A stretch of 64,000 bases of DNA from Stegostoma tigrinum (GCF_030684315.1 NC_081378.1:16856575-16920574), one strand, 5' to 3'; shown: positions 762-60,814, counted from the stretch's first letter. Numbers and translations are program-made. The notes: generated by a model from the sequence alone, not told the origin.

Positions 762-2499
762 AAAACAGTTTTGCACTTGAGTAGCACGTCCTTGAGCTGT
801 TTTATTCCATCATCCCCTATGGTACAGAGTCTTAAATCCAATTCTACCATAGCAGAATGACAGAGACAGTAACATAATGCAGCGAGGTCTAATGGGCCCA
901 GAGAAATGTTGAAAAAATCTATATGCTTGAAATGAGGAGATACCTCTGTTGTTACAGTTGAATCATGCAGTTCAAAAAGACAATGCATTAAATTCAGCAG
1001 CTTGGACTTCTTGCAACCTTGTTCAAGACAGTTTTTGAACCAAGTCACTAGGGCTCTGGCTGTAGGCTGAGTGAGAGAAGCACTACAGTTCCATAATTTA
1101 GTATCTCTTCTTGCTTTTAAGGAGCCCATGAAAAGCCTTGTAAAATTGTATAGTGCCTCTGTACGTTCAGGCTTAAATGATCTCAAATAGTATTGACTCT
1201 TTTGATTTTGTGGCATTCTCCCAAAACACCAAAGATTCAGACTTTTGACCAATTCTTCAGCATCATTTTTCAGTGATGTTGCACAATACAAAGCTGCAAA
1301 ATATTCCTTTAGGACAACATGGCAGAACTCAAATATATTTTGATCTTTATACTTCTTTTCCAGGATTACATTTGAAAAATACTTCGAAAGAACATCTGGA
1401 TCTATCCCATAATTATGCAGATCATCTATTTTCATTTCAAGTTTCCCTGACAGCAAATTATTGAAGGAGAGTTCCCCCAATTTCAGGATAGTGTCTTGAA
1501 GCAATGTGCCTTCCAGTTTAGTCTCAGAGTTATCAATAGTGACCAATGACTGCTTGTCTGTCTTGCAGTGAACTAGGCTGTAAAGGAACTGCAGCAGTAC
1601 TTCACTGTGTGTCACTGGCACATCTGCCATCAAAGTCTGACTGCAGTTACATCTGTCCAAAATACTGCACAGGATATAGCTGTTGAGGGGATTTGACACC
1701 AGGCAGTTGATGGTCTCATGTTTGGTCATGTATTCATACATTCCTACTGCTTTTTGATTTTTCTGACAGAACACTTCACAATATCTTCTCAACTGATCAC
1801 TGGTAAACCCATGGATAACAAGGATGCAATCAAAATACTTCTTGTGAAATTCAAGTTGCTCAGTATTCCAACGGGAGGTAACCAATACCTGTGCTGTTGA
1901 AAGGAGATCCCCTGCAATGAGACTGTGAACAAGAACATTTACTTCAGCCTCAGTGTCTAGGTTAAAACAACCATCTGGTGGATTATTTTGCAACCGATGG
2001 TTGAATTCATCCAGTCCATCCAAAATGATCAACACATCTTGAGGGTTACAGAGAAGTTCCGTTAGAACTGATGACAATGACTCACACTGCTTCTTAAGCA
2101 GTTTCTGTAGAGTGGTCTTTCCTTCAACTTCATTTAAGTCACAGAATCTGAAAACAATGATGCACCTTGGATGACATAGTTGAGATTCTGCCCATGCTTG
2201 CTGGATGCTGGCTACAGTCCAGCTTTTCCCCACTCCTTCGTCACCTATTAGCAGGACTCGCTTTGAAGGGTAGTCTACTTTCTGTGGCAATGACAGCAGT
2301 TGTACAGCTTTCACTTCTGACACAAAATCCGAAGCAACTGTCCCCATAATGTCATCCAGAGCTGTGATTTGTTTCTTTGGAACAATAATACTGATAGTTC
2401 TGTCAAGTAAGCTATAGGCTTTGGACTTCCCATGTGACACCTTGTCAAGAAACTCTGTTTGATTCTGCAATATGTACTTTTGGTAAACTTGAACGGCAT
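762..2499 (-). CDS. Gene A: large NLR exon (NACHT, HD1, WHD, HD2, first LRR), NLRC3/NLRP-like
   Basis: Open frame with Walker A GDEGVGKS, Walker B LIILDGLDEF, sensor-1 LVTSR, the GF motif, SNPL, FEFCHVVLKEYFAALY, LLNLMHCLFEL and an RI-type LRR start (LDLRLCTIGDDGIKQL). Acceptor ttccttctag|AT at 2499 (phase 1, extending the ORF by DAVQVYQKYI). Donor TT|gtgagt at 762/761 (phase 2). Remaining LRR exons probably lie outside the window. Confidence 0.93.
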
Positions 2500-4334
2500 C
2501 TAGAAGGAAGCGGATGAAGTTTTAGTATACAACAGGAAAGTGTTTCATTCAGAAACAGGAACTGGGCATTCAACCAATTACAAAACCAGCTTTTATAAAT
2601 GTCCACCTCCCTTTCCTTTAAATTTTAAACATTTACAGCATTTATATGCTCCTTTTCAGTATTTAATACTTGGGGCAGGATTTTAACGGTCAAGTGGGAG
2701 CAGGAACTCAGATATATGGACCCATCATTTCCTTACACTGTACTATCTATTTAGAATTTGGATTCTCATTTAATGTAGAGCTAATCATTTTACTAGTGCA
2801 TCCACGGGACAATTTCTTGAAGGATAAAAATGTTTCCGGGTGCTATCCTTGTCTTGATGTGGTTCCTCATCATCTGTCAGTAACACTGGAAGCAGGAAAT
2901 TTCAACACAGGGATTCACTAGCTCTTCTCGCAGAAAATAAGATCCTTGTGGGCAACAGAAACTATTTGTTGGAATTATGTGCCAAGGTTCCCATCACAAA
3001 ATGACAGTTGATCTGTAGTGAAGCTGCTGTGCAAACAGGTGGAAAACTGGTTTTCAACAGTCAATTTTGGTGACCTTGCTATATGGCCATGTTTGTGGCC
3101 AACACCACCAATAGAAGAAGCAGCGCTTATGCACAATCACAGAATTATTTTTAAATTTCTACATGCGGCAAACTATAAACAAACATAAAAGAGGTCATCA
3201 AGGCCAGATGAATACATCTGCATTTGAGTAGAATTGTTCCAGAACACTTGTGTAAGCTTAACCTTTCTTTCCTGTTACCAAAGATCTGCAATGTTTCACA
3301 CAGGCAGTAACAAACTCCTATCTACCACCATTTTAAGAGTAGTTTTGGTCGGTGATTTCTTTAGCCACTTTTTTTTTCCCTCGTCACTTGATGTTAGACA
3401 AACACTGCATTGAAGTACATACTCTGCTTGTCTAACGTAAAGTGACAATTGAGAGAGTATTAGTCACTGGAAAAGTCACTTCCTAATGGTAGGATATCAT
3501 GGATGCCATTACGAACAAACAGGTTGATCATTAATTAATGGCCGTGCCCTATCTCTTGTGTTGGGAACACACTCCAGTTCCTATATTGAGGCAATTTTCC
3601 ATGACCTCTAATAGATGATTTACTCCAACACCAAAAGATCAACACTGTCCCCTTTGCACAACATGGACAATTTGGGCACTCAGCACTTAATGTCATTAAT
3701 AACTTGTTATTCATCATGGAAAAGATCATCATGGTTTCAAAGCCTCAAAGTTCAGTCCTAATTTATGTCTGCTGGCAGTGATGGAAGATGCCGGAAGCAC
3801 AAGGATCTAATGTTAAAATGGTGCAATGTTTAAGCTTCACACTGGTACTCCTTAATAAGTAGTTCTGGAATTATTTTTGAAAGGGAGCATGTAAACTAAG
3901 TCAGACTTCTCAGAGTAGTGTGGGAAGAGGCATCCACGTAATATTATCACAGTTTTAAAGTACCACCTCCTTCCCTATTCACCCATTAACAGGACTCATT
4001 CTGGACGAATTATAGAAATGGTTTATATAAAACCATTTTATAGGTTACTGGTCTTTCACTGTTTCCAATGCACTTACATGTTTTATCTATCTTGTCTATC
4101 GTCTTTAATGTATGGAGATAGTGGAATCCATGTTCCAAATTTACTAAATGATTAAAATTCTATTCTTTCCTGGCTAAATTACAAAAACAAACGTTATCAC
4201 AATCCTCGGAAGATTAGGTTGGCTTTTTGGTAGAAATGGATCAAATAGTTAACAAGAATACCAGACCTGTTTTGTAATTAGCTGCAGTGACATGATATAT
4301 TTTAGAACTTAATAAGAACACAAAAGTTCATTAC

Positions 4335-12791: not shown

Positions 12792-13201
12792 AGTCTCAGT
12801 GCTGTTTCCATTTGGAAATCTAACCTTAGAATTTATTAATGTTGGTCAAAGCAATCTTCTTCCGTGAAGCTATGCTTGTAATAGAAATTTAGCCTAAGAC
12901 ACCCTTACAATAAGTTAACAATCATATCACAGAACATGCATTAGGAGGATTCATTTCACACATCCTGTGCCTGTAGCATTGTCATTTTTTAAATAAATAT
13001 GCGTTCCATATGTTAATATTGTTTCTAAGGTTCAACCTTAAGATATTAAAAGAAGAGTAAATTCACTTCTGTGTCAACAAGCTGTAGCCTTAAATATTAA
13101 ACTTTGTAATTGTTGTGGAAGGTTCTTCCAAAGTATCAAACCTCAGTTATTGAATGAAAATCGCTTGGCAAGTGTTTAATTTTTCTCAACATTTTACTCA
13201 C

Positions 13202-13357
13202 TCTCATCAGAACTTTGTATCTTCTTTTGCACTTTCGAAAATCCAACTCCAACTCCAATTAAAACAACCAGTACTCCACATATGAATACAGATACACAAT
13301 TCGTTCTTTGTCTGTTTAAAGCTGCATTATCATCACTTCCAGTAACCATTGGTTTAT
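13202..13357 (-). CDS. Gene A: stalk, transmembrane and juxtamembrane exon
   Basis: Acceptor aaatatcctag|AT, donor GAGA|gtgagt, 156 nt, phase 1-1. Encodes DKPMVTGSDDNAALNRQRTN-CVSVFICGVLVVLIGVGVGF-SKVQKKIQSSDE: a hydrophobic span followed by basic residues, with no stop codon. Confidence 0.85.
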
Positions 13358-16743: not shown

Positions 16744-17091
16744 CATATAATTTCAGTTCCACCAAATTCTCAATGTAACCTTTTCCATCCTCTTGAATCA
16801 CGAAGCAGGTGTAGTTCCCTATATCTGATGTGGTTGCTCTTTTTAATCTGAGAGAAGCATTCCCATTGGGAAATTCTTGGAGAAACAGTTTAGTCCGTCC
16901 CCTGAATGCTGGGTCCTGATACTCTGGATGGTTTTTCTCATTGTAGAAGCTATGAACCACTTTTATACTGGTTGTCCGCTGCCAGGTAATAACAAGCTGC
17001 TGCAAACTGAATTTGGTTGCAACAGTAAAAATGCAGGGCAGTAAGATGTCTTCACCTGAGACTCCTAAGATCTGGATGAAGGATCCCTCAC
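16744..17091 (-). CDS. Gene A: IgV exon, B7/butyrophilin family (CD276/HHLA2/VTCN1-like)
   Basis: Motifs GEDILLPC, WQR, VVHSFY, QDPAFRGRTKLF, GNASLRL and DIGNYTCFV. Acceptor tttcactag|GT, donor TATG|gtaagc, 348 nt, phase 1-1. Confidence 0.92.
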
Positions 17092-19038: not shown

Positions 19039-19099
19039 CCAAGAAAGGCTGCTGAAGGAACAGAAATAACCACAATGTGATGTACAGTGGGCTCTCCAT
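19039..19099 (-). CDS. Gene A: signal-peptide exon MESPLYITLWLFLFLQQPFL(G)
   Basis: Acceptor tttttatttttcag| at 19102, strong Kozak GCAATGG, hydrophobic core, and a perfect donor TTGG|gtaagt in phase 1 matching the IgV exon. Confidence 0.88.
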
Positions 19100-41375: not shown

Positions 41376-41501
41376 CTATTCACCAGAATGTAAGTAAAGC
41401 ACTGAACTGTAGACAATCTTCTCTTCCTTTTTCCTCACTTTCTGCTGCAAGTTTTCCAGTTGCAGTTCTGCATAATATATATTATTCCCGCTGCTCTCAT
41501 C
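41376..41501 (-). CDS. Gene B: terminal cytoplasmic exon with two ITIMs
   Basis: Acceptor cccatttttcag|, phase 0: DESSGNN-IYYAEL-QLENLQQKVRKKEEK-IVYSSV-LYLHSGE*. AATAAA follows about 60 nt after the stop. Confidence 0.85.
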   Translation of the reverse strand, partial: DESSGNNIYYAELQLENLQQKVRKKEEKIVYSSVLYLHSGE

Positions 41502-41674
41502 CTGAAAAATGGGAATGACATACAAACGCATTTATATTTTCTGTTCTCAATTTCTTGAGCACCCATTCCTTATACTAACTGCAAACTTTGAAAACCTGGG
41601 CTTGTTACTCTTTTTATCTCACTTTATCTCTTACTTTTTCGACTTTGCTACTCTTGTCACAATTGGGGTTTTAC

Positions 41675-41688
41675 CTTCACCTGAATTT
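41675..41688 (-). CDS. Gene B: possible 14-nt micro-exon (K)IQVK
   Basis: ttatttacacag|AAATTCAGGTGAAG|gtaaaa converts phase 1 to the phase 0 required by the ITIM exon. An alternative route would use a longer 43584-43660 exon. Confidence 0.45.
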
Positions 41689-42133
41689 CTGTGTAAATAA
41701 AAAAGTTTGTAGTGAGAGAGTTCTCCAGTTGAGCCAAGCAGACAGAGGTGCAACTCCAATTTGTTAATTTTAAAAAATATTTTGACACATTAACAACCAT
41801 TTCAGTGAGCCAATGGCTTATATCATGGCAACTGTGACAATCAAAATTAGTACCGTCAAACCAATCGGCGTTGGGTCTTTTATAGCTTCAGCTCCCATTC
41901 CCCAGTAATTGCAAAGACCTATAACTAGAAATGTTTGAATTCTTCTTACCTACATTATTCTTACATGTCTTTATTGTATCATTTCAGTGTCAGCTCCTGT
42001 TGGCAAACCCCTGGCGTCAGTTCCTTCTGGTCATCTGCTGAAAACTATTCCTATGTTTTCCTGGCTTGGCTCTGATCCTCTGCCCTCCATAAACTTTAAT
42101 TAGTCAAAAACTTGGCTATCCACCATTGACTTA

Positions 42134-43402
42134 GGGCAGCACAGTGGTTCAGTGCTTAGTTCTGCTGCCTCAAAGTGCTAGGGACCCGGGACCCTGGGTG
42201 GCTATCTGTGTGGAGTTCACATATTCTCCCCGTGTCTGCATAGGTTTCCTCTAGGTATTCCAGTTTCCTCCCACAGTTGAGAGATATGCAAATTAGGTGG
42301 ATTGGCTATGATAAATTGCCCATAATGCCCAGGGATAGAGTCAAAGAAATGTACAGCATGGAAACAGACCCTCTGGTCCAACTTGTGCATGCCGACCAGA
42401 TATCCTAAATTAATCAATTTGCATTTGGCCCATATCCCTGTAAACCCTTCCTATTCATATACTCATCCAGATGCCTTTTAAATGTAATTGTACCAGCCTC
42501 CACCACTTCGTCTGGCAGCAAATTCTGCACACCCACCACCCTCTATGCGTAAAAATTGCCCCTTAGGTCCCCGTTAAATTTTTCCCCTCTCACCCGAAAC
42601 CTATGCCCTCTAGTTCTGGGCTCCCCTACCCCCGGGAAAAGACCTTGTCTTTTTACCCTAACCATGCCCTTCATGATTTTATAAACCTCTATAAAGGTCA
42701 CCCCTCAGCCATCGAAGCTCCAGGGAAATTAGTCCCAGCCTATTCAGCCTCTCCCTGTAGCTAAAACCCTCCAACCCTGGCAACATCCTTGAAAATCTTT
42801 TCTAAACCCTTTCAAGTTTCACAACATCCTTTCTGTAGCAGGGTGACCAGAATTGCACACAATACTCCAATAGTGGCATAACCAATGTCCTGTACTGCCA
42901 CAACATGACCTTCCAACTCCTATACTCAATGCACTGACCAAGAAAGGCAAGCATACCAAACGCCTTCTTCACTATCCTGTCCACCTATGACTCCATTTTC
43001 AAGGACATATGAACCTGCAATCCAAGATCTCTTTGTTTACTAATACTCCCCAGTATCTTACCATTAAGTATACAAGTCCTGCCCTGATATGCCTTTCCAA
43101 AATACCACACCTCATATTTATCTAAATTAAACTCCATTTGCCACTCCTTGGGCCATTGGTCTATCTGATCAAGATCCCATGTACTCTAAAGTAACCTTCT
43201 TCGCTGTCCACTACACCTCCAACTTACTAACCATACCTCCTATTTTCATATACATCATGCAGACTAGGTGGGTTAGCCATGGGAAATGTAGGGTTCGGGG
43301 ATAGGGTAGGCGGTGGGTCTACGTGCGACACTCTTCATAGGGTTGGTGTAGACTAAATGGGCCAAATGGCCTGTGTCCACACTGTAGAGAGTCTATGATA
43401 CT
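42134..43402 (+). mobile_element. HE1-type tRNA-derived shark SINE, split by a CR1 insertion (~42336-43255, minus)
   Basis: Head GGGCAGCACAGTGGTTCAGTG...GGGACCCGGG, body GTGTGGAGTTCACATATTCTCCCCGTGTCTGC, and a tail resuming at ~43258. A partial related copy lies at ~58400-58570. Confidence 0.7.
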
Positions 43403-43618
43403 ATGCCTTCTCCTGCCAAGTCAGTCTGCGTTATCTGGCCTGGTGAATATGAACAACACTTTGTCAAATATGTTTACTTGGTGATTGCAGAAGACCCCTG
43501 AATAGGCCCAGGCTTTGAACTAGTAACAGATGTAAGATCCTAAATTATGTGTCCACATTGTAAAAAAGTAAGGTTATATTTACGATGCTATCTTGTCTAC
43601 AATGCAATCTTCGATTAC

Positions 43619-43660
43619 TTGCACAATTTCCATTTTGTTCTTGAGTTCTTCTTCTTCCTC
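43619..43660 (-). CDS. Gene B: juxtamembrane cytoplasmic exon (G)GRRRTQEQNGNCA
   Basis: Strong acceptor tttttattttatatag|GA in phase 1 and a basic RRR right after the TM. Donor GCAA|gtaatc, or a downstream phase-0 donor AGCATC|gtaaat at 43584. Confidence 0.65.
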
Positions 43661-43817
43661 CTATATAAAATAAAAATTATGACAAAGAAGAATATAATTA
43701 AATATTTTTAGATGCATTGATGTTTAATGATATATTTATTAACTTATTTTAATTGCACAATTTTCTTGATTTGATTTCCTCACATGTAACAAAACAGAAG
43801 TGAGAACTATAACCAAT

Positions 43818-45026
43818 GGATGTGAGTTTGCTCGCTGAGCTGGAAGGTTAGTTTTCAGATGTTTCGTCACTTTTTTTTTAATTTGAAAAAATATACTTTA
43901 TTCATAAGATGTACAAAAAATAAAACATTTATACACCTACCCAGTCATGCAAGCCTCTCCGGGTTACCCAGGGGGTACGTACGCCAACTAAAAGGAAAAA
44001 AATAAACAAAGAAGAAAAAAAAACAAAGCAAAGAAAATACCCCGGCAGTCGTCACCCCGCACAGTCCCCGATGGCCCCCTGACCAGTTGGGGAAGACACC
44101 AGCTGGGCCCAGTTACCAGATAGGGCCCTTTTTTCTATTCTGGACGAGGGGTTTCATACCGTGGTCTTTCCCCACCGCGCCTTGGCGGCGGCTGCCCCAA
44201 GCTTTAGCGCATCCCTCAGCACGTAGTCCTGGACCTTGGAGAGCGCCAGTCTGCAAGACTTGGTTGGGGTCAGCTCTTTCAGCTGGCAGACCAGCAAGTT
44301 GCGGGCAGACCAAAGAGCGTCTTTCACCGCCATGATGGTCCTCCAGGCGCAGTTGATGTTGGTCTCGGTGTGTGTCCCAGGAAACAGCCCGTAGAGCACT
44401 GAGTCCCGCGTCACGGAGCTACTCGGGATGAACCTCGATAAATACTACTGCATCCCCCTCCAGACCTCCTGCGCACAGGCACACTCCAGAAGGAGGTGAT
44501 CGACAGCCTCGTCCCCCCCACAGCTGCCTCGAGGGCAGCGTGCAGTGGTGCAGAGATTCCGGGCATGCATAAAGGATCTCACTGGCAGAGCCCCTCTCAC
44601 CGCCAGCCAAGCAATGTCCTTGTGCTTGTTTGAAAGTTCTGGTGATGAGGCATTCTGCCAAACAACTTTGGCAGTCTGCGTGGGGAACCACACGACGGGT
44701 TCCACCCTCTCCTTTTCCCAAAGGGTCTCGAGGATACTACGTGCTGACCACTGCCTGACGGCCTTGTGGTCAAAGGTGTTTCCCTTCAAAAATTTCTCCA
44801 CGGGACGGTCCAACTACTCGGAGCGTTCCGCGGCAACGAGGCCAGGCCCATCCTTCGCAACACCAGGGACAGGTAGAACCTGAGTAAGTAGTGACACTTG
44901 GTGTTTGCGTACTGAGGATCTACGCACAGCTTGATGCAGCCGCACACAAAGGTAGCTGTCAGGGCGAGGGTGGCGTTCGGTACGCCCTTTCCCCCATTTT
45001 CCAGGTCTTTGTACATGGTGTCCCTG
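43818..45026 (-). mobile_element. Inverted arm: Tx1/L1-type 3' end with poly-A joined to the Penelope family-2 tail
   Basis: Reverse-complement copy of ~49766-50985. The poly-T at 43871 abuts GTCAC of the hammerhead stem II. Confidence 0.9.
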
Positions 45027-45029
45027 TGG

Positions 45030-48000
45030 GCTCAGAAACCATAACCACTCTCCCCTACATCAAAGACAATTCCGAAATGACTGCCAGACTACTCGGACCT
45101 CTTGGCATCAGGGTAGCCCACAAACCCACCAACACACTAAAACAGCAGCTAATGAACTTAAAAGACCCTATACAGACAACAAATAAAACGAACGTCATCT
45201 ACAAAATACCTTGCAAGAACTGTGACAAACACTACATTGGACAAACAGGCAGAAAGCTAGCCACCAGGATACATGAACATCAACTAGCCACAAAACGACA
45301 TGACCCACTATCACTCGTATCCTTACATACAGATAAGGAAGGACACCACTTTGATTGGGACAACACATCCATCCTAGGACAAGCCAAACAGAGACACGCA
45401 CGAGAATTCCTAGAAGCATGGCATTCCAACTGGAATTCCATCAACAAACACATTGATTTGGAGCCAATCTACCATCCCCTGAGAAAAAGAACAGGAAATG
45501 ACATCACCAACCCAAGGAAACTTAACCAGATAAATAGAAAGCGGGACATAACACCAGCGCTTCGTCGGAAGCTCACTGATGATGTTACCTAGAATGGTGA
45601 CTGATTGTCTGGGAACAAACCTTCAAGCTCGGTGAACCAGCTTACATCCGGAACAAAATAAAGACCCACTCTTTTGCGGACCGAGAGGAGAAGAGCGCTG
45701 TGTTGGAGGTGGAAGGAAGACGTCGGGTTGGCTGTGCACCCTTGCAACCAGTGGATCTTAATGCTGGCTTCGGCCTAACGCTGGTTCAGGGGAGCAGCCA
45801 ACCTGCAACGATGGCTGCAGCAAGTGCTCGTGCCCCAGGTCAGGGGGTCCGGAACACCATCCGTGTTTCCGTGAAGAAGGTGGATGAAGGTGCACCTGTG
45901 GACCGCACCTTCTTCGTGAAGAGGGTCCTGTTGGACTGTTGCAGGTTCGCTGCTGCGGACATTTACTGCCTGCAGGATTTCCCCAGAGGAGGTTTCTATG
46001 ATGTAACCTCAGGAGTGCCAAGCTTTGCGAGCGCTTCCTGGAGGTTTTCAAGGAGAAAGGGGGTGAAGGCCCCCTCTCTGTACTGACCGCTGTTCCGCTG
46101 TTTGTGATGCCAGTGCAAAGGAGCCGTATGGTGACTGTACACATGTACAACCTGCATGTGCCAGCAGTTGATGTCCTGACCTTCCTTGGAAGGTACGTGA
46201 AGGTGGAAGGGGACCTAACTGACATCATGGACCCCTTTGGCCTCTGGGCCAGTAAGAGGCAGGTCAACGTGACGCTGAGGATGGGCACGGACGGGAACGT
46301 CGTACACCCACCGTCCAGCTTCGCGATCGGCAGGAGCAAGGGCTACCTGACCTACGCCGGGCAACCTAAAGTCTGCCATGCCTGTGGTAGGTCAGGTCAC
46401 GTGGCGGCCGACTGCAAAGCCACCATCTGCAGGAACTGCAGGGAGGAGGGACACCTTGCAAAGGATTGCCCACAAGAAAAAAGCTGCAACTTTTGCGGGG
46501 AAGCGGGCCACCTCTATAGGGCATGCCCGCGGCAGGGGACCACCTACGCCCAGGTCGCCGGCAGGGGCAATGCGGGGCCAGCCCCCCCGGGAGGAGAGGA
46601 AGGCACCAGGGCCCTGCAAGGACCCCACTAATGTGCAGGATGGCCAGGTCATGCAGGAGGGCCCAGCCCCGCAGGATGGGCCCGAGGCCAGCGAAGCGTC
46701 CCTCCAGGCTCCGCTCCCCCCTGACAACCCGGAGTCGATGGAGGCAGCAACAGGCGACCCAGGGGAGTGGACGACAGTCCGGAAAGCGAGGATGAAGGCG
46801 CGTCGGCGGGCCCAGGAACCACAACCATCAGGCGGGAAGAGGCAGCTACAGGGGGGCTATAAGAGCTCCTCTGACAAGGGGGATTCGGAGAGGGCCTGCC
46901 CGAAGCAGAAGTTAAAGATCTCCAGGGAGAAGGAAAGCAGCACCCCACTTCCAGGTGACGGAGGCATCCTGATGCTCCCTCCAACACCCAGTCACATGCC
47001 GCTGGGGCACTGGAGGGCCCCCTGGAACTTCCAGGTGGGAAGAAGGAAACAGCGCGTCCCCAGCCTGACCCAGAGCCGGACTCTCCTGCCTCCATACCCC
47101 TGACGGGGGGATGCCACCCGGAAGGCAGCACAGACGGTTTCCTGAGCCCAGAGAGCGTCCAGCAGTTAGCCCGGGTAATGGGTATGAAGGGACAGATGGA
47201 GGGGCTGGACCTTGGACTTGGGGCGGGTACTGCGGTCACTGCCCACAATGGGGGTACGAGTTGCGAGCATTAATGTGCGCAGCGTCAAGTCCACCGCAAG
47301 ATGTGTGTCCACGTTGGCCTACCTGACCACCGTCAAGGCGGACCTCCTGTTTCTGCAGGAGTGCGGGATACCGCACCTCAGCAGGTACGGGAAATGGTCC
47401 GGCGCCTGGACCCGTGGGCCTTCGATCTGGTCGGGGGGTAACAACTGTCGCTCCTCGGCCTGGCTATTCTGCTGCGGCGGCGTGACTTCACCATCTCTCA
47501 AGTTCAGGAGGTGGTGTGGGGGCACCTCCTAGTGGCTGACATCACCTACAGGAACGGTCCCCTGAGGCTGATCAACGTGTACGCCCCAGCGGTACGGAGT
47601 GAGCGATTGGCCGTCCTGCAGCGGCTTCCACCCCTGCTGGCTACGTCCAGGCCGGTCATCCTAGGCGGAGACTTCAACTGCATCATCGATGCAAATAGAA
47701 GATCCGGCGTGGGGACAGCGGGTGGGGGGAGTCAAATGGACGTCACGTCCAGATTCCTAATGGGCACGGTGAAGGACGCCAAGCTGCTCGACGTCTTCAG
47801 CACCCCTGCAGACGGAGTGCAGCGCAGGTACACTTGGTCGCGGCCAGATGGGTCTATTCGCTCAAGGATAGACTTCCTGTTTGTGTCACAGGTGTTCTCG
47901 GTCAGGTCCACCGGCATCGAGCCGGTGTTCTTGTCTGACCACTGCCTCCTGCTGGCTGACTGACACTTACAGGATGACCAGCCGGCCGGCAAGGGGACGT

Positions 48001-51000
48001 GGAAGCTCAACACGACTCTGTTGACCCCAGAGAACGTTGAGGAGCTTAAGAGGGAGTACGCCGGTTGGAGAACCTTGAAACCCCTCTTTGAGTCTCCAGG
48101 CAACTGGTGGGAGATGGTGAAGGAGACATCAAGAGGTTCTTTGTCATCAAGGGTGTTCGGAAGGCAAGAGAGAGGCAGGGAAAGCTGTCGCGACTCCAGA
48201 AAAGGGTGCAGAACCTGCTCCTTCTGCAGTTGATGGCGGTCAATGTCACGGAGGACCTCTGCGAGGTGAGGGGCCAGCAAGCCTCGCTCTTCGCTGCGGA
48301 GGCCTCCAGGATAATCTTCCGATCCAGGGTCTGCTCCGTGGAGCAGGACGAGACGTGCTCGCGTTTCTTCTTTCAGAAGGTGCACAAAGAGATCTCTGTG
48401 CTTAGCCGGCTGAAGGAGGATGACGGCTTGGTGACGTCGTCTCAGCCCGACATTTTGAAGATCAGCAGATCCTTCTATGCTGGACTGTACAACACGAAGC
48501 CCATGGACAGCACGGCCTCCGAGTCATTCCTGTCGTCTATCATGGAGGTCTTAGACAACGGCACGAGGGAGTGGCTGGACCGGCCGATATCCCTGGATGA
48601 GTTGACCAGAGCCCTCAAGTCCTTGGAGAGGAATAAGACTCCCGGGAGTGACGGCTTACTGGTCGAGCTGTATTCCGCTCTGTGGGACCTGGTTGGCCAG
48701 GACCTGCTGGAGGTGTACGATAGTGCGCATTGGGCAGGGGAAATGTGCAAGTCCATGAGGAAGGGCATCATCACCCTCATTTACAAGAGGAAGGGGGAGA
48801 GGGAAGAAATTAAGAATTGGTGTCCCAATTCACTATTGAACGTGGACTACAAAATCCTGGCCAAGGTCATAGCCAACCGGGTCAGGTCTGTCCTGGAGTC
48901 AGTGATTCACCCTGACCAAACCTGTGCTTTGCTGGGCAGGAAGATCGCTGACAGCAATGCAGTCATCAGGGATACAATCGCCTACGTGCAGGACAGGCGG
49001 GTGGACACCTGCCTCGTCAGCCTGACCAGGAGAAGGCCTTCGACAGGGTCTCTCATGCTTACATGAGGGACGTCCTCTCCAAATTGGGGTTCGGGGAGGG
49101 CATCTGCAATTGGATCCGGCTGCTCTACACCAACATCGTTAGCGCAGTCTCGATCAACGGGTGGGAATCGGACAGTTTTCCCGTCAGATCTGGAGTCAGG
49201 CAGGGCTGCCCGCTCTCTCCTGCCTTGTTCGTGTGCTGTGTGGAGCCCTTCGCCGCATCCATCAGGAAGGACATGAGCCTGAAGGGTGTGACTATCCCAG
49301 GCAGCGGAGGCCTTCAGGTCAAGACCTCCCTGTACACGGACGACGTCGCCGTCTTCTGCACCGATCGTCCGTCGGTGAGTAGGCTGTTGGACATCTGCGG
49401 CCAGTTGGAACAAGCCTCGGGTGCCAAAGTCAATAGGGGTAAGAGCGAGGTCATGTTCTTCGGGAACTGGGACGACCGCTCCTTCATCCCCTTCTCCGTC
49501 AGGACAGACTACCTGAAGGTGCTGGGTGTTTGGTTCGGTGGAGCTGGGGCGTGCACTAAGACTTGGGAGGAGCGTATCACCAAACTGAAGCAGAAGCTGG
49601 GCAGGTGGACGCTCCGGTCCCCTTCCGTTGCAGGTAAGAACCTGGTTGTCAGGTGCGAGGGGCTTTCGGTACTGTTGTATGGACGCAGGCCTGGCCTATT
49701 CCCTGGACCTGCGCCGCTGCGGTCACCCGGGCCTTCATTTGGGGGTTGAGGATGGACCGGGTCTGCAGGGACACCATGTACAAAGACCTGGAAAATGGGG
49801 GAAAGGGCGTACCGAACGCCACCCTCTCCCTGATGGCTACCTTTGTGTGTGGCTGCATCAAGCTGTGCGTAGATCCTCAGTACGCAAATACCAAGTGTCA
49901 CTACTTACTGAGGTTCTACCTGTCCCCGGTGTTGCGAAGGATGGGCCTGGCCTCGCTGCCGCGGAACGCTCCGAGTATTTGGACCGTTCCGTACCAGCTG
50001 TCCTTCGTGGAGAAATTTTTGAAAGGAAACACCTTTGACCACAAGGCCGTCAGGCAGTGGTCAGCACGTAGTATCCTCAAGACCCTTCGGGAAAAGGAGA
50101 GGGTGGATCCCGTCGTGTGGTTCCCCACACAGACTGCCAAAGTCGTTTGGCAGAATGCCTCATCGCCAGAACTTTCAAACAAGCACAAGGACATTGATTA
50201 GCTGGCGGTGAGAGGGGCTCTGCCAGTGAGATCCTTTATGCATGCCCGGAATCTCTGCGCCACGCACGCCGCCCTCGAGGTGGCTGCGGGGGGGACGAGT
50301 CTGTCGATCACCTCCTTGAGTGTGCCTATGTGCAGGAGGTCTGGAGGGGGATGCAGTGGTATTTGTCGAGGTTCGTCCCGAGCAGCTCTGTGACGCGGGA
50401 CTCCGTGCTCTACGGGCTGTTTCCCGGGACACACATTGAGACCAACATCAACTGCGCCTGGAGGACCATCATTGCGGTGAAAGACGCTCTTTGGTCTGCC
50501 CGCAACTTGCTGGTCTGCCAGCTGAAAGAACTGACCCCAACCGAGTGTTGCAGACTGGCGCACTTCAAGGTCCAGGACTACGTGCTGAGGGACGTGCTAA
50601 AGCTTGGGGCAGCCGCTACCAAGGCGCGGTGGGGAAAGACCACGGTATGAAACCCCTCGTCCAGAATAGTAAAAAGAGCCTTATTTGGTAACTGGACCCA
50701 GCTGGCGCCTTCCCCAACTGGTCAGGAGGCCAACAGGGACTGTGCAGGGTGACGACTGCCGGGGTAGGTTTTTTGCTTTGCTTTTTTTTCTTCTTTGTTT
50801 GTTTTTTTCCTTTAGTTGTTGTACGTACCCCCTGGGTAACCCGGAGAGGCTTGCATGACTGGGTAGGTGTATAAGTATGTTTTTTTTTGTACATCTTATG
50901 AATAAAGTATATTTTTTCAAATAAAAAAAAGGTGACGAAACGTCTGAAAACTAACCTTCCAGCTCAGCGAGCAAACTCACATCCAGAACCTCAACCTGAG

Positions 51001-51024
51001 CTACAAATCATCTCAAAACACGCT
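45030..51024 (+). mobile_element. Penelope family-2 copy interrupted at 45601/50931
   Basis: Near-identical to 7483-8128. The whole 43818-51024 composite is flanked by the 13-bp TSD AACTATAACCAAT (43805-43817 and 51025-51037). Confidence 0.9.
45602..50930 (+). mobile_element. Full-length Tx1/L1-clade non-LTR retrotransposon (disabled)
   Basis: ORF1 from 45811 with three CCHC knuckles. ORF2 47248-50650 with APE (SINVRS, LQE, GDFN, RID, SDH), RT (GVRQGCPLSP, YTDD) and a C-terminal Cys-rich region. AATAAA and poly-A; TSD GGTGAC at 45596-45601 and 50931-50936. Confidence 0.93.
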
Positions 51025-51581
51025 AACTATAACCAATATTAAGGCAGAAATGGCTCAGGACACTTTCTCTTTCAAGCATATCCTAAAATACGACGGGCAA
51101 AAACCATAGGGAAAACCCTAAATAAAGCATTTACAAATGTGCATGAAGAAAATCATATATTTGCTTAATACAATTAATTAAAGTTGGTTACAAATTGTGA
51201 GAGCACAAGTTAATGTTAACAAAAAGGAAGCTGGAAACAAATATTTGCGATTTATTAATCTCATTCATAACAGAATGATTTAAACACAAATGAAAAGTGT
51301 CTTTTGAATTATCAGTTGAGGACCATTGGTAGCCCAATCAACCAATTAACTTTGAAACACTAAACAATTTAGTTGTTACATCTGAAAATCTGATTTGAAC
51401 TAGACACCATTACTGAGTTGTAATAATTAAGCATTTCGTTCAGAAAGTGGAGGGGCAAACTCGAGTGTTATTGGAGAAGGAACACGTGGTACCCACCAAT
51501 GCTCTTGATGCCTTTAGGAAGAGATGGGTACCACACAGGATACAATACTTTACTTCCCCCTCCAAATCCATTTTGATTTAG

Positions 51582-51774
51582 AGATAGTAGGAACTGCAGA
51601 TGCTGGAAAATCTGACATAACAAGGTGTAGAGCTGGATGAACACAGCAGGCCAAGCAGCATCAGAGGAGCAGGACCCATTTCTGCAGAAGCATCTCAGCC
51701 CGAAACGTCAGCCTTCCTGCTCCTCTGATGCTGCTTGGCCTGCTGTGTTCATCTAGCTCTGCACCTTGTTATCT
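51582..51774. mobile_element. Penelope inverted-tail mini insertion
   Basis: Inverted arms; flanking direct repeat TCCATTTTGA(T/C)TTAG. Confidence 0.75.
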
Positions 51775-54279
51775 CCATTTTGACTTAGTCCCCTTCTCTT
51801 CCTAACACCACCCCCTTCACATTTTAATATCTACGTTGTCTTGTGGTGCAAAGGTAGTATCCCTCCCACTTGGCCAGAAAGTACAGATTTAATTCCCATC
51901 TGCCCCAAAGGTGCATCTTAATGTCCAGACTGTTTGGTTAAAATGTTTAGTTAAGAAAACACAGTTAATGCCTCTCTAGGTCAGCAGATTCGTATTATCA
52001 ACAAATGGAAAAGGAGTGTTGGTGATTTGTGGTGCTTGTGAAACTAACAAATTAAAGAAAAAGTGACTTATTAAAAAAAGTTGACTTTTGGGTCCTGTTT
52101 CACTGGTTTACTTACTGACTAGCCAGAAAGTCCCTCATTACACAAGCAACGGGATCATTGAAACAGGTAGATTGTACAACTGCAGTGCATCCTGAACCTT
52201 CCTCACAATCTGTGCTGTCTCTTAAGTACATTTGCATGCCTTTCCACTTTGCAAAGATGTATGGTTTTGTAAAGGCTGCTGTTGCACACTGTCCACCTCA
52301 ACTCCTACGTGCGCTTCATAGACACACCTGGTGTGCTTATTTGGTACCAGGTGGCTGTGATCCCTAGTTGAGAACTCTGTACATGGGAATCCTCCCACTT
52401 TCCATCAGTGACCTAGAGGGTATTGCACACAGCAATCCCATATATCCACAAATTGAGACAGTTCACGGCCTAACTGTTTATTTTGCAGCACTGTGGAGTC
52501 CGTGGACAATGTTTTTGTTCGTTGTACAATCTTTTGTTTTGGTTTTGATTTTGATTTTGATTGCACCCCAGCCCTACACTCCTGCTCTTTGGGCATCTGG
52601 TGCGGAGGAGTGTGGGAAGATCAGATGACTTCCTTGTGGGTCTGTTCCTGGGCCTGACCAGGCTGGCTGTAGTAGGCAGCAGGCTATGTTGGGGATCATC
52701 AGTCAACTGTCTGCTCCTCTTCCACAGCTATATTTGTGCCTGAGTGTCATTGGAGAAGGAGCACATGGTGTCCATCCATGCTGTTGATGCCTTTGGAGAG
52801 AGGTGGGCACTGCAGGGGTTACAGTGCTTTCCCCCCCCACCCCCAACTCCATTTTAATTTAGTCCATTTCTGTTCTTCCTACACCCCACTCTGCCTCTCT
52901 CATTTGATGGTTTGTGTTGCCCATAATGGGTTTTGCTTGTAAACACTCAGTTAGATAGGTGGGTGTTTTTACTGGTGGTGGTTGCTAGTTTAAAGAAAAG
53001 CAAAAAAACCAGTCACAGTGATTTCCATGGTGGAAGGATGTTCTATTGGTGTGATTGCACTTCTGGGTAGAACCAAAATCTTAAGCAAGTTGTGTAGCAA
53101 GCCTGTCAACTTTGATGGACTCATGACCTCCCCCTGCAGGAAGCTCTCAAACCACAAGCAGAAGTGTTGAACTGAACTTACATTTAATTCAGGGAGTTCA
53201 GCAACACCACTGTCTAAAGGGTTGCTAATTCAAGATACTTACTTTGATTAAAATTATAACTGTTAATATTATTTAAATACTGTTACAGTGGTCATGATAA
53301 CCAAGTTTAAAGGATTTTTAAAAAAAAAAACAAAATAGTGTGCTCCTTATGAACACATTGTAATTTGGTTTTGTTGCCTCCAGGCCCAAAGTAGAATCAC
53401 AGATGACATCTTAAATGCTCATGATCAGATATTATTAAATTATATCATTTTAAACATTGATGCATTGGTGTTTAGCACAACTGGCACAGACTCTCTTTAT
53501 ATCATGGGAAATTAAGATGATATATGTGTATTCCTTTCACATCAAGTATAAATCATAAAAAGAAAACACTGACTTCAATTCTAGTTAACTATTTAGAGTT
53601 AAACATTCAGAGAAATGTCAGATGATGACAATGGCTGTCGTTGTATATTAGCTATTATTGATCAAAATGAAAGTAACTCATTAGCAGTTTTTTGGACTGG
53701 GCAAGTTAATTTTATCTCCTGATCACTCTCTGATAAATATTTAAAATGGAATATAACAAAGATCTCTTAAAAGTATACTAAGTAACTACATTCCTAAATA
53801 AGTGACTAATGAATAAACATTGTACCCAAGCAATGAGACATCATTTATGAGTGTATGTAGAGGCAGTGCTTGGATTCAGAAAGGTGGAATCAAACCAGAT
53901 TCAAATATAAGCTTAACTTATGAAGACAGCTTATAGAAAATCTGCTCTTTTAGAAGAAAGGCAATTGAGGAACTGGCACAATCCTGGACTTTGAACAAGT
54001 AAAAGGAATGCATAAGGTAATTTTAGACAGATGCTTTGTACAAATAAGAGAGGTACACCTAGCATGGGAAATGTAAAACTTCAGGCATTTTATTGATAAT
54101 TAAGATAATATTTTATATCACCAGTTAAATGATTGAATAAAAATAAGACTAATGGGATGTTGGTAGATAGCTGGTTCTAGAGGAAAGAGGTGTAAGAATT
54201 GTGGTTGCATTATCAGAGTTTCATAACAGATTACATTCCTCATGGAATAAACTATATCGTTTGCTGGACAGCTGCTTAC

Positions 54280-54384
54280 CATGTATGTATTTAATGAGTA
54301 AAAGCACAAGAAGAACACTACATGCTATTCCACCACAAATGGAAAGTAAAATGAATGACAGCATCCAAAGATGTCCATTACGAT
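54280..54384 (-). CDS. Gene B: transmembrane exon
   Basis: Acceptor atattttgcag|AT, donor CATG|gtaagc, 105 nt, phase 1-1. Encodes DRNGH-LWMLSFILLSICGGIACSVLLVLLLI-KYIH, with no charged residue in the TM. Confidence 0.88.
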
Positions 54385-55107
54385 CTGCAAAATATGGATT
54401 GTAGACTCACAATGTGCAGAATTATGCAGACAATCTGCTAAAACTCAAATTGAATTTAGATTAAAAAAAACTGTAGATGCTGCAAGTCTGAAACAAACAA
54501 GACAAATTTCCGGGGAAACTCAGCAGGTCTGATAGCTTCCATGGAGAAAACAGAGTTAACATTGAGTCCAGAGACCCTTCTTCAGAAACGAGTTTGTCTG
54601 AAACAGAAGGGGTTTGGTTGGATCAGTTGACTGGACAGCTGATTTGGGATGCAGAGTAACACCAACAGCATTGGTTCAATTCCAGGTCTAGTCAGGATTT
54701 TTATGAAGGACTTTCCTCCTCAATCTCTCACCTTGCTTGAGGTATGGTGATCCTCAGGGTAAACCACTATCAGTTACCTCTCTCTCTCATGAGAGAACAG
54801 GCCTATCACCTAGTAGCATAATGACAACTTTACCTTCTATGTGTATATATGATGAAGAAAGGCAGAGGCTTTTCAGCCCCAGCAATGATTCTTTTGGCAC
54901 TGCACTACTTACAAGTTCTCCTCTTAAAACCACTCCTTTTTATGCCTTCCAATAGTTAGCCAATTCTCTATCCTTGGTAATATTCTTGCCCCAACACCAT
55001 GCATCATCTAATTCACCCAATGCAAATGAAGCAGTATTTCTGCTACGTATTGAAAGAAAAATGCCACAGATACATATTCTGAAGAGTTTGATAATATTAC
55101 ACCTTAC

Positions 55108-55419
55108 CTTCACCTCTTGGGTGTACATGAATGAGGATAGTACGGTTTATCTTGAATTGTGAAGCAGGATGCTGAATCATACAAGTGAATTCATTTGAGT
55201 TATTACAGTTTTCAGTGGAGATGTTAACAATGGCCATGTAGTTGTATGTTCCATCAGGGTTAGATGTCTGGATTTCGTTGGTGAGCTGGTTGATGAGACA
55301 GGTTGTTTGGAACATCATTGTAATAGTGTTTGGATAAAAATTGTGTGCTGAACAGTTGATTGTAGCTGAAGGTGAAGATGTTTCTTTAGAAGATGCAAAT
55401 AGCCAAAGAGAAGGAGGAG
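55108..55419 (-). CDS. Gene B: C1-set Ig domain exon
   Basis: Motifs APPSLWL, INCSAHNFYPNTI, NPDGTYNY and FTCMIQHPAS (C1-set FYP, NxDGTY, CxxxH). Acceptor ttttcataactag|CT, donor GAAG|gtaagg, 312 nt, phase 1-1. Confidence 0.88.
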
Positions 55420-56460
55420 CTAGTTATGAAAAGGAGGGCAGAGGATTGGTTAATAATAGAATCAGATTAATGTCAGCTCAATGTGCAATTGAACCATCCA
55501 GACTTCCAAAGCTATTGAAACAACCTGATGTGATCTTGAACAGATATCTAAACATAAAGAAGGAATGTTTTTAGTAATAAATCACTTTCTAGATGGTGTC
55601 AAATATTTATGTATTTCCATTTTCACTCAATCTCAATTTTAGTTTTTCACCAGTCTGGTAATTGCACCTTAACTCTTTACATGAAATCTTTTCCTTCCTG
55701 ACTTTACCTTCCTTTTGGTCCATCAACTCCATTCTCACCATCGCAACCCTATCCCATCTACGTTGATGTTTTAGATCTGTTAGACCTGCCATTATCTGTT
55801 AAATATTTTCAGACATTTTTCAGCCTAAATCCCATTCTAGCATCGGATGCGATTTGCTCAATTTTCCATTTGCTTAACCGCTCTCATTTCTGTCACGCTC
55901 TCTTGCCTCTGTCCCATTTATTCTACATTGCCCCTACAATTACTGCTGGCGCCTTGCTGTTTTATTTTCTCCCACTTCTTATCAGTATTTTAAAAGTACG
56001 TTCCTTCATCCTATTACGAGAATTGAATAAGCAAGGGATGCACCACTCATGAACAAACTAACAACATCATCACCAGCAAACCAATCATGTCAGCTTGCAC
56101 TGGATTCCCAACAGGTTTGACCTAAGTGGACTCGCCGAGCCTGTACGCACGGATTCGGAACCAGGGGAGAAATTCGAGATTCTTACGAAAGGGCGGCTCC
56201 CCAATTCGTGCCGGGTTAATCCTGCAGGAAGCAGAGTCAAATGGATGACTCGCCCAGCATCGACTGGTACATCAGTAAATACCTATTTGAAGTCAAGTTG
56301 CTGATGCCACTGGGGTCGTTCAGGGGCTCCTCTCCAACTCTCCTTTTTACTATTAGAGTGGCTTTTGTTTGAACTTAGAAAAATACTTGGTTAATACGCA
56401 TCTTAATTTAGCAAAGAATTACTACACATGTTAAGAACATGATAGGCACAGTATGCACAG

Positions 56461-57720
56461 TAGAACATAGAACATTACAGCACAGTACAGGCCCTTCGGC
56501 CCTCGATGTTGTGCCGACCTGTCATACCGATCTCAAGCCCATCTAACCTACACTATTCCATGTACGTCCATATGCTTGTCCAATGAAGACTTAAATGTAC
56601 CTAAAGTTGGCCAATCTACTACCATTGCAGGCAAAGCGTTCCATTCCCTTACTACTCGGAGTAAAGAAACTATCTCTGACATCTGTCCTATATCTTTCAC
56701 CCCTCAATTTAAAGCTATGCCCCCTCGTGCTCACTGTCACCATCCTAGGCAAAAGGCTCTCCCTATCCACCATATCTAACCCTCTGATTATCTTATATGT
56801 CTCAATTAAGTCACCTCTCAACCTTCTCTCTAACGAAAACAGCCTCAAGTCCCTCAGCCTTTCCTCGTAAGGCCTTCCCTCCATACCAAGCAACATCCTA
56901 GTATTTCTCCTCTGCACCTTTTCCAAAGCTTCCACATCCTTCTTATAATGTGGTGACCAGAACTGTACACAATACTCCAAGTGCGGCCGCACCAGAGTTT
57001 TGTACAGCTTCACCGGAACCAAGAGGTTATGGAACTCAATCCCTCTATTAATAAAAGCTAAAACACTGTACGCCTTCTTAACAGCCCTGTCAACCTGGGT
57101 GGCATGTTTCAAGGATCTGTGTACATGGACACCGAGATCTCTCTGCTCATCTACACTGCTAAGAGTCTTACCATTAGCCCTGTACTTTGCCTTCTGGTTA
57201 CTCTTACCAAAGTGCATCACCTCACACTTGTCTGCATTAAACTCCATTTGCCACCTCTCAGCCCAGCTCTGCAGCTTATCTATGTCTCTCTGCAACCTAC
57301 AGCATCCTTCATCACTATCCACAACTCCACCGACCTTAGTGTCGTCTGCAAATTTACTAACCCATCCTTCTATGTCCTCATCCAGGTCATTTATAAAAAT
57401 GACAAACAGCAGTGGACCCAACACCGACCCTTGCAGTACACCACTAGTAACTGGTCTCGAGGATGAACATTTCCCATCAACTATCACCCTCTGTCTTCTT
57501 TCAGCAAGCCAATTTCCGATCCAAACTGCTATATCTCCCACAATTCCATTCCTCCGCATTTTGTACAATAGCCTATTGTGGGGAACCTTATTGAATGCCT
57601 TGCTGAAATCCATATACACCACATCACCCGGTTTACTCTCATCTACCTATTTGGTCACCATCTCAAAGAACTCAATAAGCTTTGTGAGGCACGACCTTCC
57701 CTTCACAAAACCATGCTGAC
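56461..57720 (-). mobile_element. CR1 LINE 3' fragment, same young family as 14667 and 35560
   Basis: 343-aa RT ORF 56591-57622; tail TAGAACATAGAAC. Confidence 0.93.
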
Positions 57721-59415
57721 ATAAAAGACCAGGATATAGTATCGATTGCTAGTGAAGTAGCTGCTAATGGCAGGAGGCGATTTCGAGTTGTTGTCCGGGA
57801 CAGATTCTGATTTCAAGTGGCTAGTGTGTCTGGTACCCTGCAGATATTTTCTTTTCACGGATAATTATAAAATTTTACGAGTCATCTTGATAAAATAGAC
57901 CACTTATGAAAATTGTTGCTGTTTTCCCCTTTTTCAATATTCTGCAAAAAGAAAAGAAATTAGCTTATTTCAAGGATATACCTGACTCTGAAAAAAAAAA
58001 TCAAACGTCTGCAGGTGCAGTTACACTTGAAACGTTAACTTGTCACTTCTTCGACAGATGAGGTCCCTGATCTGCTTCGTCTTTCCAATGTTTTCTCAAA
58101 TAAGTAGGCTTCACTAATAAGTCAAGGAAATAGCATTTAATTATTGTAAATACAACGTGTACCGTGTGCTCAGAGGGATTACCAGCGAAGGATCAAAAAC
58201 TTGTCAAAAAGAAGTGGTTTTAAATATATTAGTTAAGATATTTCTTTTAAAGAGAGAATTGAGGTGAAACCTAAGACAGAATCGTCAACTCATATATAAT
58301 TATCAAATAAAAATAGCAGGAGCATTTCATAAATATTTCATGTTTGTCTTTCCCAAACTGAGGCCAAAGTGAATGTTACTCAAATGAGCAGTTGAGGTGA
58401 ATTAGCCATTCTACATTCCTCGTGGTGTCCAGGGATGTGTAGGTTAGGTGGAGTAGGCATGGGAAATGCAGAGTTACAAGGATGGAGTGGACCTGGATGG
58501 GATGCTGTTCGAAGGGTCGGTGTGGATTCGATTAGCCGAATAGCCTGCTTCCACACTGTAGGGACTCTATGACGGCTTATTAGAATAACCAAATTTATTT
58601 CACTAGTCCAAGTTGAGAAATAGAGAACTTCTAAACCTTTAAGAGGAGATCTTTGCTCCAATTACTCCTTATGCATGGAAGGAAAATTATGTATTTTGAT
58701 TATTTATAGGATAATTTGTTATTACAGTTTGAATTTTTCTCATTACTTCACTTGCATTAATTTTGTTAAAGTTAGCTCATTGGGAAAAGTATGATCTCTT
58801 TTAGGTGGAATAAGTGGAAATTTAATCTATATATTATGATTTGTGGCTGATACCTGTCCGTATCACAGCATTGAGATTCCAAAATTTGGTCAATAATTAC
58901 CTCCCCTCCCTGCCTCGTTCCGTGACAAACTCGCACATTACTGCGACGAAAATAGAAACTCGTTTTCTAGCTGCCATCGTTGATGTGACTATTGCGTTGC
59001 TGTTTACTTTTGTTAGTCTCTCTCTTGATTCCTTTTCCTATTATTATTTTCCCTCCATCGTTTCTGAAAATGCTTTACCGTTTGCTGAAGTACAGCACCC
59101 GCTCCTGTGAATGTTCTTCATGTTCGACCTTGGAAACTGAAAATCCCAGGTTTGCTCGACCACGGAGACCAGGATCCTTCTGCCTTCTCAGCGTTTTTAA
59201 TGTAGATTTCTATCTGGAATTCTTGCAATGCGTTGAGGGTGAGAACATTCCAAACCCTGAATCAAATGTAACAATTCTACCATCATCTACAATTAGCTAA
59301 CTCCATAGACTGGCGATCAAACTTGAAGCGTCTCATCTTTATGGCATATTCATTGCAGCTAAAGTTTTCACCAATTTCCTAAGGCATATTAAGGATAAAA
59401 ATATAGCATCGTTAC

Positions 59416-59766
59416 CTGTTACACTCAGCATTGTTCCTTTGCCAATTCTTTTAACGCTTGGTGGAGGCGCGACCTGAAACATCTCACAGTAGTATTGTCC
59501 GGTGTCATTGACTTGAACATCAGCAATCGTTAAAGTGAATGCTCTCTCAACTAAGTCATGCTTTGCATAATATCGATAATGAGTCACTTGGGGTACACTG
59601 GTCGTTAGGTTCGCAATGATCTTTGGAGGTGCTTGCTCAATATTACGGAAAACCCACCATGCTTCGAATCTTCGTAGATCTGGTACTGAGTGGAAACAAT
59701 TTATCGAGATCAGGCCTCCCTTTTCGACCAAAAGATGACCAGGCTGTTGTAAATCTCGCTGTCCAT
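59416..59766 (-). CDS. Gene B: germline-joined VJ-type IgV exon
   Basis: Motifs DGQRDLQQP, GGLISINC, WW, FTLTIADVQVNDTGQYYC, then EMFQVAPPPSVKRI and GKGTMLSVT (J-like GxGTxLxV). Acceptor ttttttgtcaag|AT, donor ACAG|gtaacg, 351 nt, phase 1-1. Confidence 0.92.
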
Positions 59767-60759
59767 CTTGACAAAAAAGTTAAATTTGTGCATTATTAGC
59801 AATGGATGTGAATATATGAAACGCCTGAGCTAAAGTCGTAGGAATGGTTAACTCAATTAATTCCTTCGTTTAAATAGAAGAAAAAACGTTTTTTTCTGTA
59901 TTAACAGCAATGCGCCTTATGTTTCTCACACAAAATATTTCATACATTTTCACCTTGTTGGGCTATAATTTTGAAGATGTTCCAACAGGTGTTCAACAAA
60001 AAAATGAGAAATTTAGTACATGGTGTTAAGAGGTCATTAAAGTACAGAGATGGTCACGAATTTCCCGATTGCGTACTAATGTAAGAACATCACTGGTAAT
60101 GAAAGTGTAAGCGGCATACTTACAAAATACTTAGCAACATAATATAGAATGAAAGGTATTACTGTCTGTAACAATCTTGCTAACTGAGCATATTATGCCA
60201 TTTTAGTTACACTAAACAATACTGTATGAAAAGTGAATTGAGGTGCATCGACGTCTAGTTTACGAACGGCACATGAACAAGTGATTTAAGCGTTAGTGGA
60301 TCAAGTGTTTTGTTTTGCGTTAATCACCAAATTTTTGATGGGTACAATGCTTATTTTGGCAAGTTTAAATACGTTTTCCACAGATGTTAGTTAGTTATTA
60401 GCACAAAGGCAGTTTAGTATGCTGCGCAATTAAATCAAACATTGGCACTTAAAACCGCGTGGTAGTTCAGTTAAATATCAGTAGAAACAAAGTCAGATAT
60501 ATGTAAATACATTAAATGCTGCTGATGTAGGCGATTTTGAAATGCTATTTTAGACCGAAATAGAATGATAACTAAAACCTCAGCTGAGAAATAAATCATA
60601 TCTAACTCACAACCCATTAGCTTATTTAAATTATAGACAATTGACTCAGATCATTACTGGCAATTCGCTATAAATGTCACACTTTGATAGTTATCTACAA
60701 CTCTAACTTCAAATTTAATGCCTATCCAATTTCAACAAGCACTTCATTTAAATAAGTAC

Positions 60760-60814
60760 CTGTAAATGGTAATAGCAGTTGTAGGAAAGTGTAGACAATT
60801 ATCATGTCGCACAT
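60760..60814 (-). CDS. Gene B: signal-peptide exon MCDMIIVYTFLQLLLPFT(D)
   Basis: ATG followed by a hydrophobic core and donor ACAG|gtactt in phase 1, giving ...LPFTDG-QRDLQQP when joined to the V exon. Confidence 0.75.

Follow-up and report, generated by a model that had tools for sequence, protein, structure and literature searches.

VJ-C1 genes are discussed as precursors of the antigen receptors. One of them, PRARP, reportedly described by Fu in 2019, is said to be a non-rearranging VJ gene of fish, amphibians, and reptiles with a V-C1 ectodomain, a canonical J-like segment, and a tail with immunoreceptor tyrosine-based inhibitory or switch motifs (ITIM/ITSM). SIRP-alpha has a VJ-type V domain, two C1 domains, ITIMs, and four tyrosines. 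The CD28 family is defined by a single extracellular V domain (PMC11599192). UrIg and UrIg2 have 3 and 9 C domains and are located in the major histocompatibility complex (MHC)/antigen receptor complex, UrIg being secreted, and no ITIM pair is reported in the available portion of that work (PMC12227049).

Here, we describe a gene in a 64,000-nucleotide stretch of the zebra shark genome (Stegostoma tigrinum, GCF_030684315.1, NC_081378.1:16856575-16920574, referred to as the window). The gene is intact and real, and over the V exon it agrees fully with a Stegostoma tigrinum RefSeq entry, XP_059510499, that bears the name “immunoglobulin kappa light chain-like.” It probably encodes a type I co-receptor, germline-fixed and inhibitory, of the same kind as CD28, CTLA-4, and PD-1, with B7 binding through a PPP loop predicted and recruitment of SHP-1/SHP-2 likely. 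The best reading is a CD28/PD-1-kind co-receptor with an added C1 domain, not a SIRP. An earlier sequence-only reading had proposed a non-rearranging VJ-C1 inhibitory receptor of cartilaginous fish with a transmembrane (TM) segment and ITIMs, and the features described below support that proposal. What is new is a variant among the known inhibitory VJ-type receptors, a corrected gene model, and a candidate B7-type ligand. No description of the gene was found in the literature searched, a scope outside which key subscription papers lie, nor is the gene among the accessions or loops searched in the available supplements of PMC11599192.

Exon 2 encodes a V-set domain (Pfam E value of 4e-11) whose third complementarity-determining region (CDR3) is a PPP-type loop with GxG, YYCEMFQVAPPPSVKRIGKG, retained across the clade described below. 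Its pattern, YxCx6PPPx5GxG, is of the type given as a motif for CD28X/CTLA4 (PMC11599192). The segment that had been called a J-type GKGTMLSVT reads IGKGTMLSVT; the single-exon V and the GxG stand, but the J is not canonical, with I in place of F/W, and orthologs have I, R/Q/K, or G at that place. The V loop appears to be of the CD28/CTLA-4 type and not a canonical J. There is no recombination signal sequence (RSS) at the V exon, and the single weak RSS-like match in the whole window sits in intron 2. When this V was searched against its own genome, 2 of 101 candidates matched, the only other match being a V on contig C38 whose CD28H-like label rests on a CDR3 match to an epaulette shark row.

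Exon 3 encodes the C1-set domain proposed from the sequence (Pfam C1-set E value of 1.6e-10 versus 0.014 for C2-set_2). The C1 of this family has no core Trp and carries two extra Cys residues, one at the end of strand C and the other in the E-F loop. Judging from conservation, a second disulfide (C176-C207) probably stabilizes the domain in place of the Trp. An AlphaFold model shows the V domain and a seven-stranded C domain, both confident; Foldseek and VIA-align returned generic V-C immunoglobulin (Ig) folds only, and ESM Atlas returned generic V/C1 clusters only. Summed over domains, the top PDB sequence match of the C1 exon is UrIg2. Because the J and C1 are both noncanonical and the V loop is CD28-type, the description of the ectodomain as antigen-receptor-like was an overstatement.

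The TM segment is uncharged and the ITIMs IYYAEL and IVYSSV are both in the last exon, as had been read from the sequence. The ITIM pair by itself is weak evidence because two ITIMs arose in 615 of 20,000 shuffles; its conservation is the evidence. A tyrosine pair with a spacing of 19 to 25 residues is found in 16 of the 20 family proteins listed, and bamboo shark, axolotl, and frogs have TxYxxV/I/L as the second tail motif. YAEL resembles both the PD-1 consensus and the A(pY+1) found in shark PD-1, and the joint action of the PD-1 tyrosine pair on SHP-2 is discussed in the same source (PMC12151841). The tail has a PD-1-like tyrosine pair.

Relatives were found by a cluster-representative search and name look-ups in nine other shark and ray genera, chimaera (a fragment), gar, coelacanth, caecilian, axolotl, frogs, and turtles; 20 of 150 representative matches were looked up by name, which carries no claim of absence from birds, mammals, or teleosts. 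A C1 tree, for which the first 62 rows out of 117 were used, gathers the family in one clade (19 rows, support of 100/99) with a roughly species-like branching order. This order is the independent part of the tree because the Cys motif by which the group was named lies in the alignment. In a V+C tree, 15 family rows (96/90) stand apart from Ig/TCR-like rows, SIRP-like rows, and another V(PPP)-C1 family, one whose C1 is canonical; the SIRP-like and other rows of these trees were labeled by inspection, not by names, and the trees contain no CD28/CTLA4/ICOS or PD-1 rows. The C1 with an extra Cys pair and no Trp marks a single clade of sharks, rays, chimaera, gar, coelacanth, amphibians, and turtles, and it gives a diagnostic means of classifying the numerous VJ-C1 genes of sharks. 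The sequence-only reading could assign no ortholog; orthologs can now be assigned, from sharks to turtles. The family unites CD28-family traits, VJ-C1 traits, and a PD-1-like tail from chimaera to turtles.

Databases name the orthologs Ig kappa, SHPS-1-like, or uncharacterized. The automatic name SHPS-1-like, given to several of them, fits a SIRP-alpha-like gene, a myeloid inhibitory receptor for a broadly expressed self marker, as do the VJ-type V, the C1, and the ITIMs, and an approximately unbiased (AU) test of V alone does not reject that grouping (P = 0.08). However, SIRP-like rows fall into their own clades in the V, C1, and V+C trees, and the gene has a PPP loop, two tyrosines, and only one C1 exon between its V and TM exons, whereas SIRP has a V followed by two C1 domains. 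The SIRP-like label given from the sequence is not favored, and we regard this identity as improbable.

The candidate ligand of the co-receptor proposed here is encoded 22 kb downstream, in the same orientation, by a B7-like gene with a single V domain; no C exon was seen between its V and TM exons. The V domain of the whale shark ortholog (92% identical) was modeled in complex with the V domain of this neighbor and gave a score of 0.72, compared to 0.01 for the best of three controls. The mark set for this score was reached by 51 of 78 solved versus 2 of 108 mismatched microbial pairs and by 39 of 65 versus 2 of 126 eukaryotic pairs. Three runs agreed in 100% of contacts, with a partner predicted local distance difference test (pLDDT) value of 92. 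In the modeled interface, receptor residues V117-G123 (the VAPPPSG loop) and 50-53 face strands C, C', F, and G of the partner. A loop on the C, C', F, and G strands of the partner is the geometry of CTLA-4/B7.

Of 94 candidates in the genome, at least 51 match the V of the B7-like neighbor, and most of these lie in clusters. In a survey of about 50 kb downstream of each of 12 PxP-type V loci, a B7-like V was found on the same strand at 3 loci, 26 to 43 kb off. These were the present gene (43 kb from V to V), a V-C1 cluster on C14 (35 kb), and a locus on C58 at 5.73 Mb (26 kb). By our own estimate, no more than ∼0.15% of the genome is this close to any of the 51 matches listed, the list being a lower bound. 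The C14 cluster (31.99-32.14 Mb; L043-L046, L050, L112) holds three V(EIPPP)-C1 genes, whose C1 is canonical and which have relatives in chimaera, rays, and lungfish, with the B7-like V next at 32.17 Mb. The C58 locus (5.70-5.73 Mb; L115, L118) is a PxP-GxG V exon followed by the B7-like V exon.

In the mechanism that we propose, the V domain would bind a B7-type V on the front (GFCC') face of the latter, the downstream single-V gene being the best candidate. The glycosylated C1, probably with its second disulfide replacing the core Trp, would serve as a stalk and not as a pairing surface of the Ig/TCR type. Src-family kinases would phosphorylate both tyrosines, the tandem SH2 domains of SHP-1/2 would dock, and lymphocyte activation would be damped. 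The candidate receptor-ligand pair is concrete and testable with two recombinant ectodomains.

Several observations weigh against a B7-binding co-receptor of the CD28 kind. The complex score may stem from a resemblance to solved complexes of the CTLA-4/B7 type, possibly as memory, because the docking geometry is that of CTLA-4/B7, and the neighbor is not singled out among B7 relatives because the controls were unrelated proteins and included no other B7 domains. Nine of the 12 surveyed loci, including the CD28H-, HL1-, HL2-, and X-like genes, have no B7-like neighbor, and the receptor/B7-like linkage is suggestive only because immune Ig superfamily genes cluster anyway. PDB sequence and fold matches are mostly Ig/TCR chains (antibodies and TCRs). 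V-only trees, from which 37 of 97 rows were dropped as multidomain repeats or fragments, do not group the family and CD28H-like genes together, and the V-only AU test rejects none of the CD28H, Ig/TCR, and SIRP groupings (P = 0.08 each; 0.083 for CD28H). The turtle, coelacanth, and two axolotl models (4 of 20) lack the tyrosine pair, and the zebra shark RefSeq model has neither the TM exon nor the ITIM frame.

The minus strand contains all seven segments of the sequence-only reading, with flanking AG/GT; together they make up 1,005 nucleotides and 334 amino acids. Those for the leader, V, C1, TM, and last exon (exons 1 to 4 and 7) are borne out by homology to whale shark, bamboo shark, and catshark RefSeq proteins; the length of exon 5 and a 14-nucleotide exon are not. 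Three RNA-type runs from a relative, their RNA status being a guess, were compared. Contigs of runs X1 and X2 (two of the three, from two studies) span 43658-43578 with the end of the TM exon on one side, and in X2 (one of three) the same piece joins the start of the ITIM exon on the other; run X3 gave no contig. The proposed splicing of the ITIM exon downstream of the TM exon is therefore shown in the relative's RNA-type contigs. The whale shark and bamboo shark RefSeq X1 models, of 343 amino acids, run from leader, V, C1, and TM through a longer exon 5 straight into the ITIM exon. At the 43578 donor the zebra shark genome has AT, not GT, and the sole DNA-type contig compared at exon 5, possibly the source sample itself, is identical to the window. 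The zebra shark RefSeq model takes the GT donor at 43584, six bases earlier, which keeps the frame and would give 340 to 341 amino acids with both ITIMs. Because the relative's contigs join the TM exon to the longer exon 5 and this directly to the ITIM exon, the protein would have about 341 amino acids rather than 334. We infer the zebra shark membrane form from the intact splice sites and the relatives.

The insertion of a long interspersed nuclear element (LINE) in intron 4 and the lost exon 5 donor could instead have partly disabled the zebra shark gene or made its product mainly a secreted V-C1 decoy. The only zebra shark RefSeq model skips the TM exon, uses a 47-nucleotide LINE piece (43941-43987, minus strand) as an exon, and shifts the frame; the remaining donor scores low (-1.7 in a rough matrix of our own); and TM-skipping isoforms are also found in catshark. 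However, the TM exon and its splice sites are intact, as are both ITIMs, the V and C1 are 92% and 97% identical to those of whale shark, and the 43584 donor preserves the frame. We give a disabled or decoy gene little probability and retain the membrane co-receptor.

The single-exon VJ, the V-C1 ectodomain, and the ITIM/ITSM tail are shared with PRARP and Xenopus VJC1 as these are reportedly built, and the species range is similar to that reported for PRARP. The gene could be the shark ortholog of chicken PRARP or of a Xenopus VJC1 gene of the kind reportedly described by Ohta in 2019; the same inhibitory function would be compatible, and novelty would then be limited to the shark member and the proposed ligand. 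However, the canonical J-like F/W-G-x-G said to mark PRARP is replaced by IGKG, the C1 is noncanonical, there is just one intact copy, C14 carries another V(PPP)-C1 family whose C1 is canonical, and no bird protein is among the 20 named clusters. PRARP is also counted among VJ genes in the MHC (PMC10751288), whereas the gene lies on C33 and MHC class I on C44 (34 of 34 MHC_I matches). We consider this orthology rather unlikely.

Compared to the CD28 family (CD28/CTLA4/ICOS, CD28H, CD28HL1-3, CD28X, and PD-1), the gene is alike in its PPP loop followed by GxG, type I TM segment, and tyrosine tail, and CD28HL3 and PD-1 have a twin ITIM as here; its B7-type docking is predicted. It differs in having a V plus a C1 in place of the single V. 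Orthology to CD28H, HL1, HL2, or X was rejected, the zebra shark counterparts being on C38, C1, C1, and C6, respectively, as was identity with CD28HL3, which has a different gar accession and block. The gene shares a non-rearranging VJ exon, a split leader, and C1 with UrIg/UrIg2 (PMC12227049); identity with either was rejected, since a VJ followed by at least three C1 domains is not found here. The IgL/TCR identity of the RefSeq label was rejected as well, there being no RSS-flanked V/J and no core C-strand Trp in the C1.

A bolder proposal, which we hold tentatively and think unlikely, is an undescribed checkpoint lineage of jawed-vertebrate age in which a CD28-type V plus C1 would be encoded in cis with its own B7-type ligand, the cassette being repeated on other shark chromosomes. 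If true, this lineage would be a living link from co-signaling receptors to the VJ-C1 precursor of antigen receptors, and orphan B7-H3/H4-like molecules would gain a candidate ancestral receptor.

TABLE 1 Features of the receptor gene, its B7-like neighbor, and related frames (window positions unless a contig is given)
Feature	Position	Strand	Remarks
Exon 1, split leader, 55 nucleotides, phase 1	60760..60814	-	N terminus matches XP_059510499 and XP_020371795
Exon 2, single-exon V, FG loop VAPPPS, GxG G strand	59416..59766	-	No RSS at or in exon
Exon 3, C1-set without C-strand Trp	55108..55419	-	Extra conserved Cys C176 and C207; four N-glycan sites
Exon 4, uncharged TM segment	54280..54384	-	
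Exon 5 (revised), cytoplasmic spacer	43584..43660	-	Acceptor 43660 or 43657; donor 43584 here, 43578 in relative
14-nucleotide exon of sequence-only reading, unsupported	41675..41688	-	Absent from relative's junction and every RefSeq isoform seen
Last exon, IYYAEL and IVYSSV, stop	41376..41501	-	Tyrosines 21 residues apart; AATAAA at 41318
LINE-type insertion in intron 4	43817..50985	+	1.2-kb duplicated ends
B7-like gene, leader exon	19039..19099	-	
B7-like gene, V exon (candidate ligand)	16744..17091	-	Best solved matches B7-H3 and B7-H4
B7-like gene, TM and short tail exon	13194..13357	-	Read from sequence
Degenerate C1-like frames	L012:7994-8434 and L012:5933-6280 (G000:C33, ~17.017-17.019 Mb)	-	No V exon found nearby

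The zebra shark genome contains a single intact copy of the gene. Two degenerate C1-like frames ∼96 to 98 kb beyond the window have the family Cys signature and lack the canonical residues; they are either relics or part of another gene. The neighbors of the gene include Smoothened-like, tetraspanin, and ACOT/BAAT exons and an NLR gene. The last lies directly downstream of the B7-like gene and has a large NACHT/NLRC-type exon (window 758-2521, minus strand, Pfam NACHT E value of 1e-23). Local synteny in bony fish is not shown because the reedfish gene list has no named V-C1 gene near smo/tspan33a; its ACOT/BAAT genes are 4.6 Mb away.

A TSP1 domain and stretches of EGF/sushi/LDLa-like type are found in long exons (L012:3-3789 and L011:9367-9999, minus strand) that appear to resemble cephalotoxin-like genes. 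Left-flank exons (L025 and L039) have no Pfam match, and we take them to resemble legumain and the AHCYL2 N terminus. Retroviral env and integrase C-terminal pieces are found at L005:8033-9662 (minus strand). A germline-joined VJ light-chain-like exon ending in YFGSGTKLIV lies at C34:42.476 Mb (L173:1330-1752, minus strand), with a C exon 5 kb downstream. Duplicated, near-identical VJ exons occur at C14:38.97 and 39.14 Mb (L093 and L138), one of them followed by a C1 exon, and a truncated C1 copy is present at 39.016 Mb.

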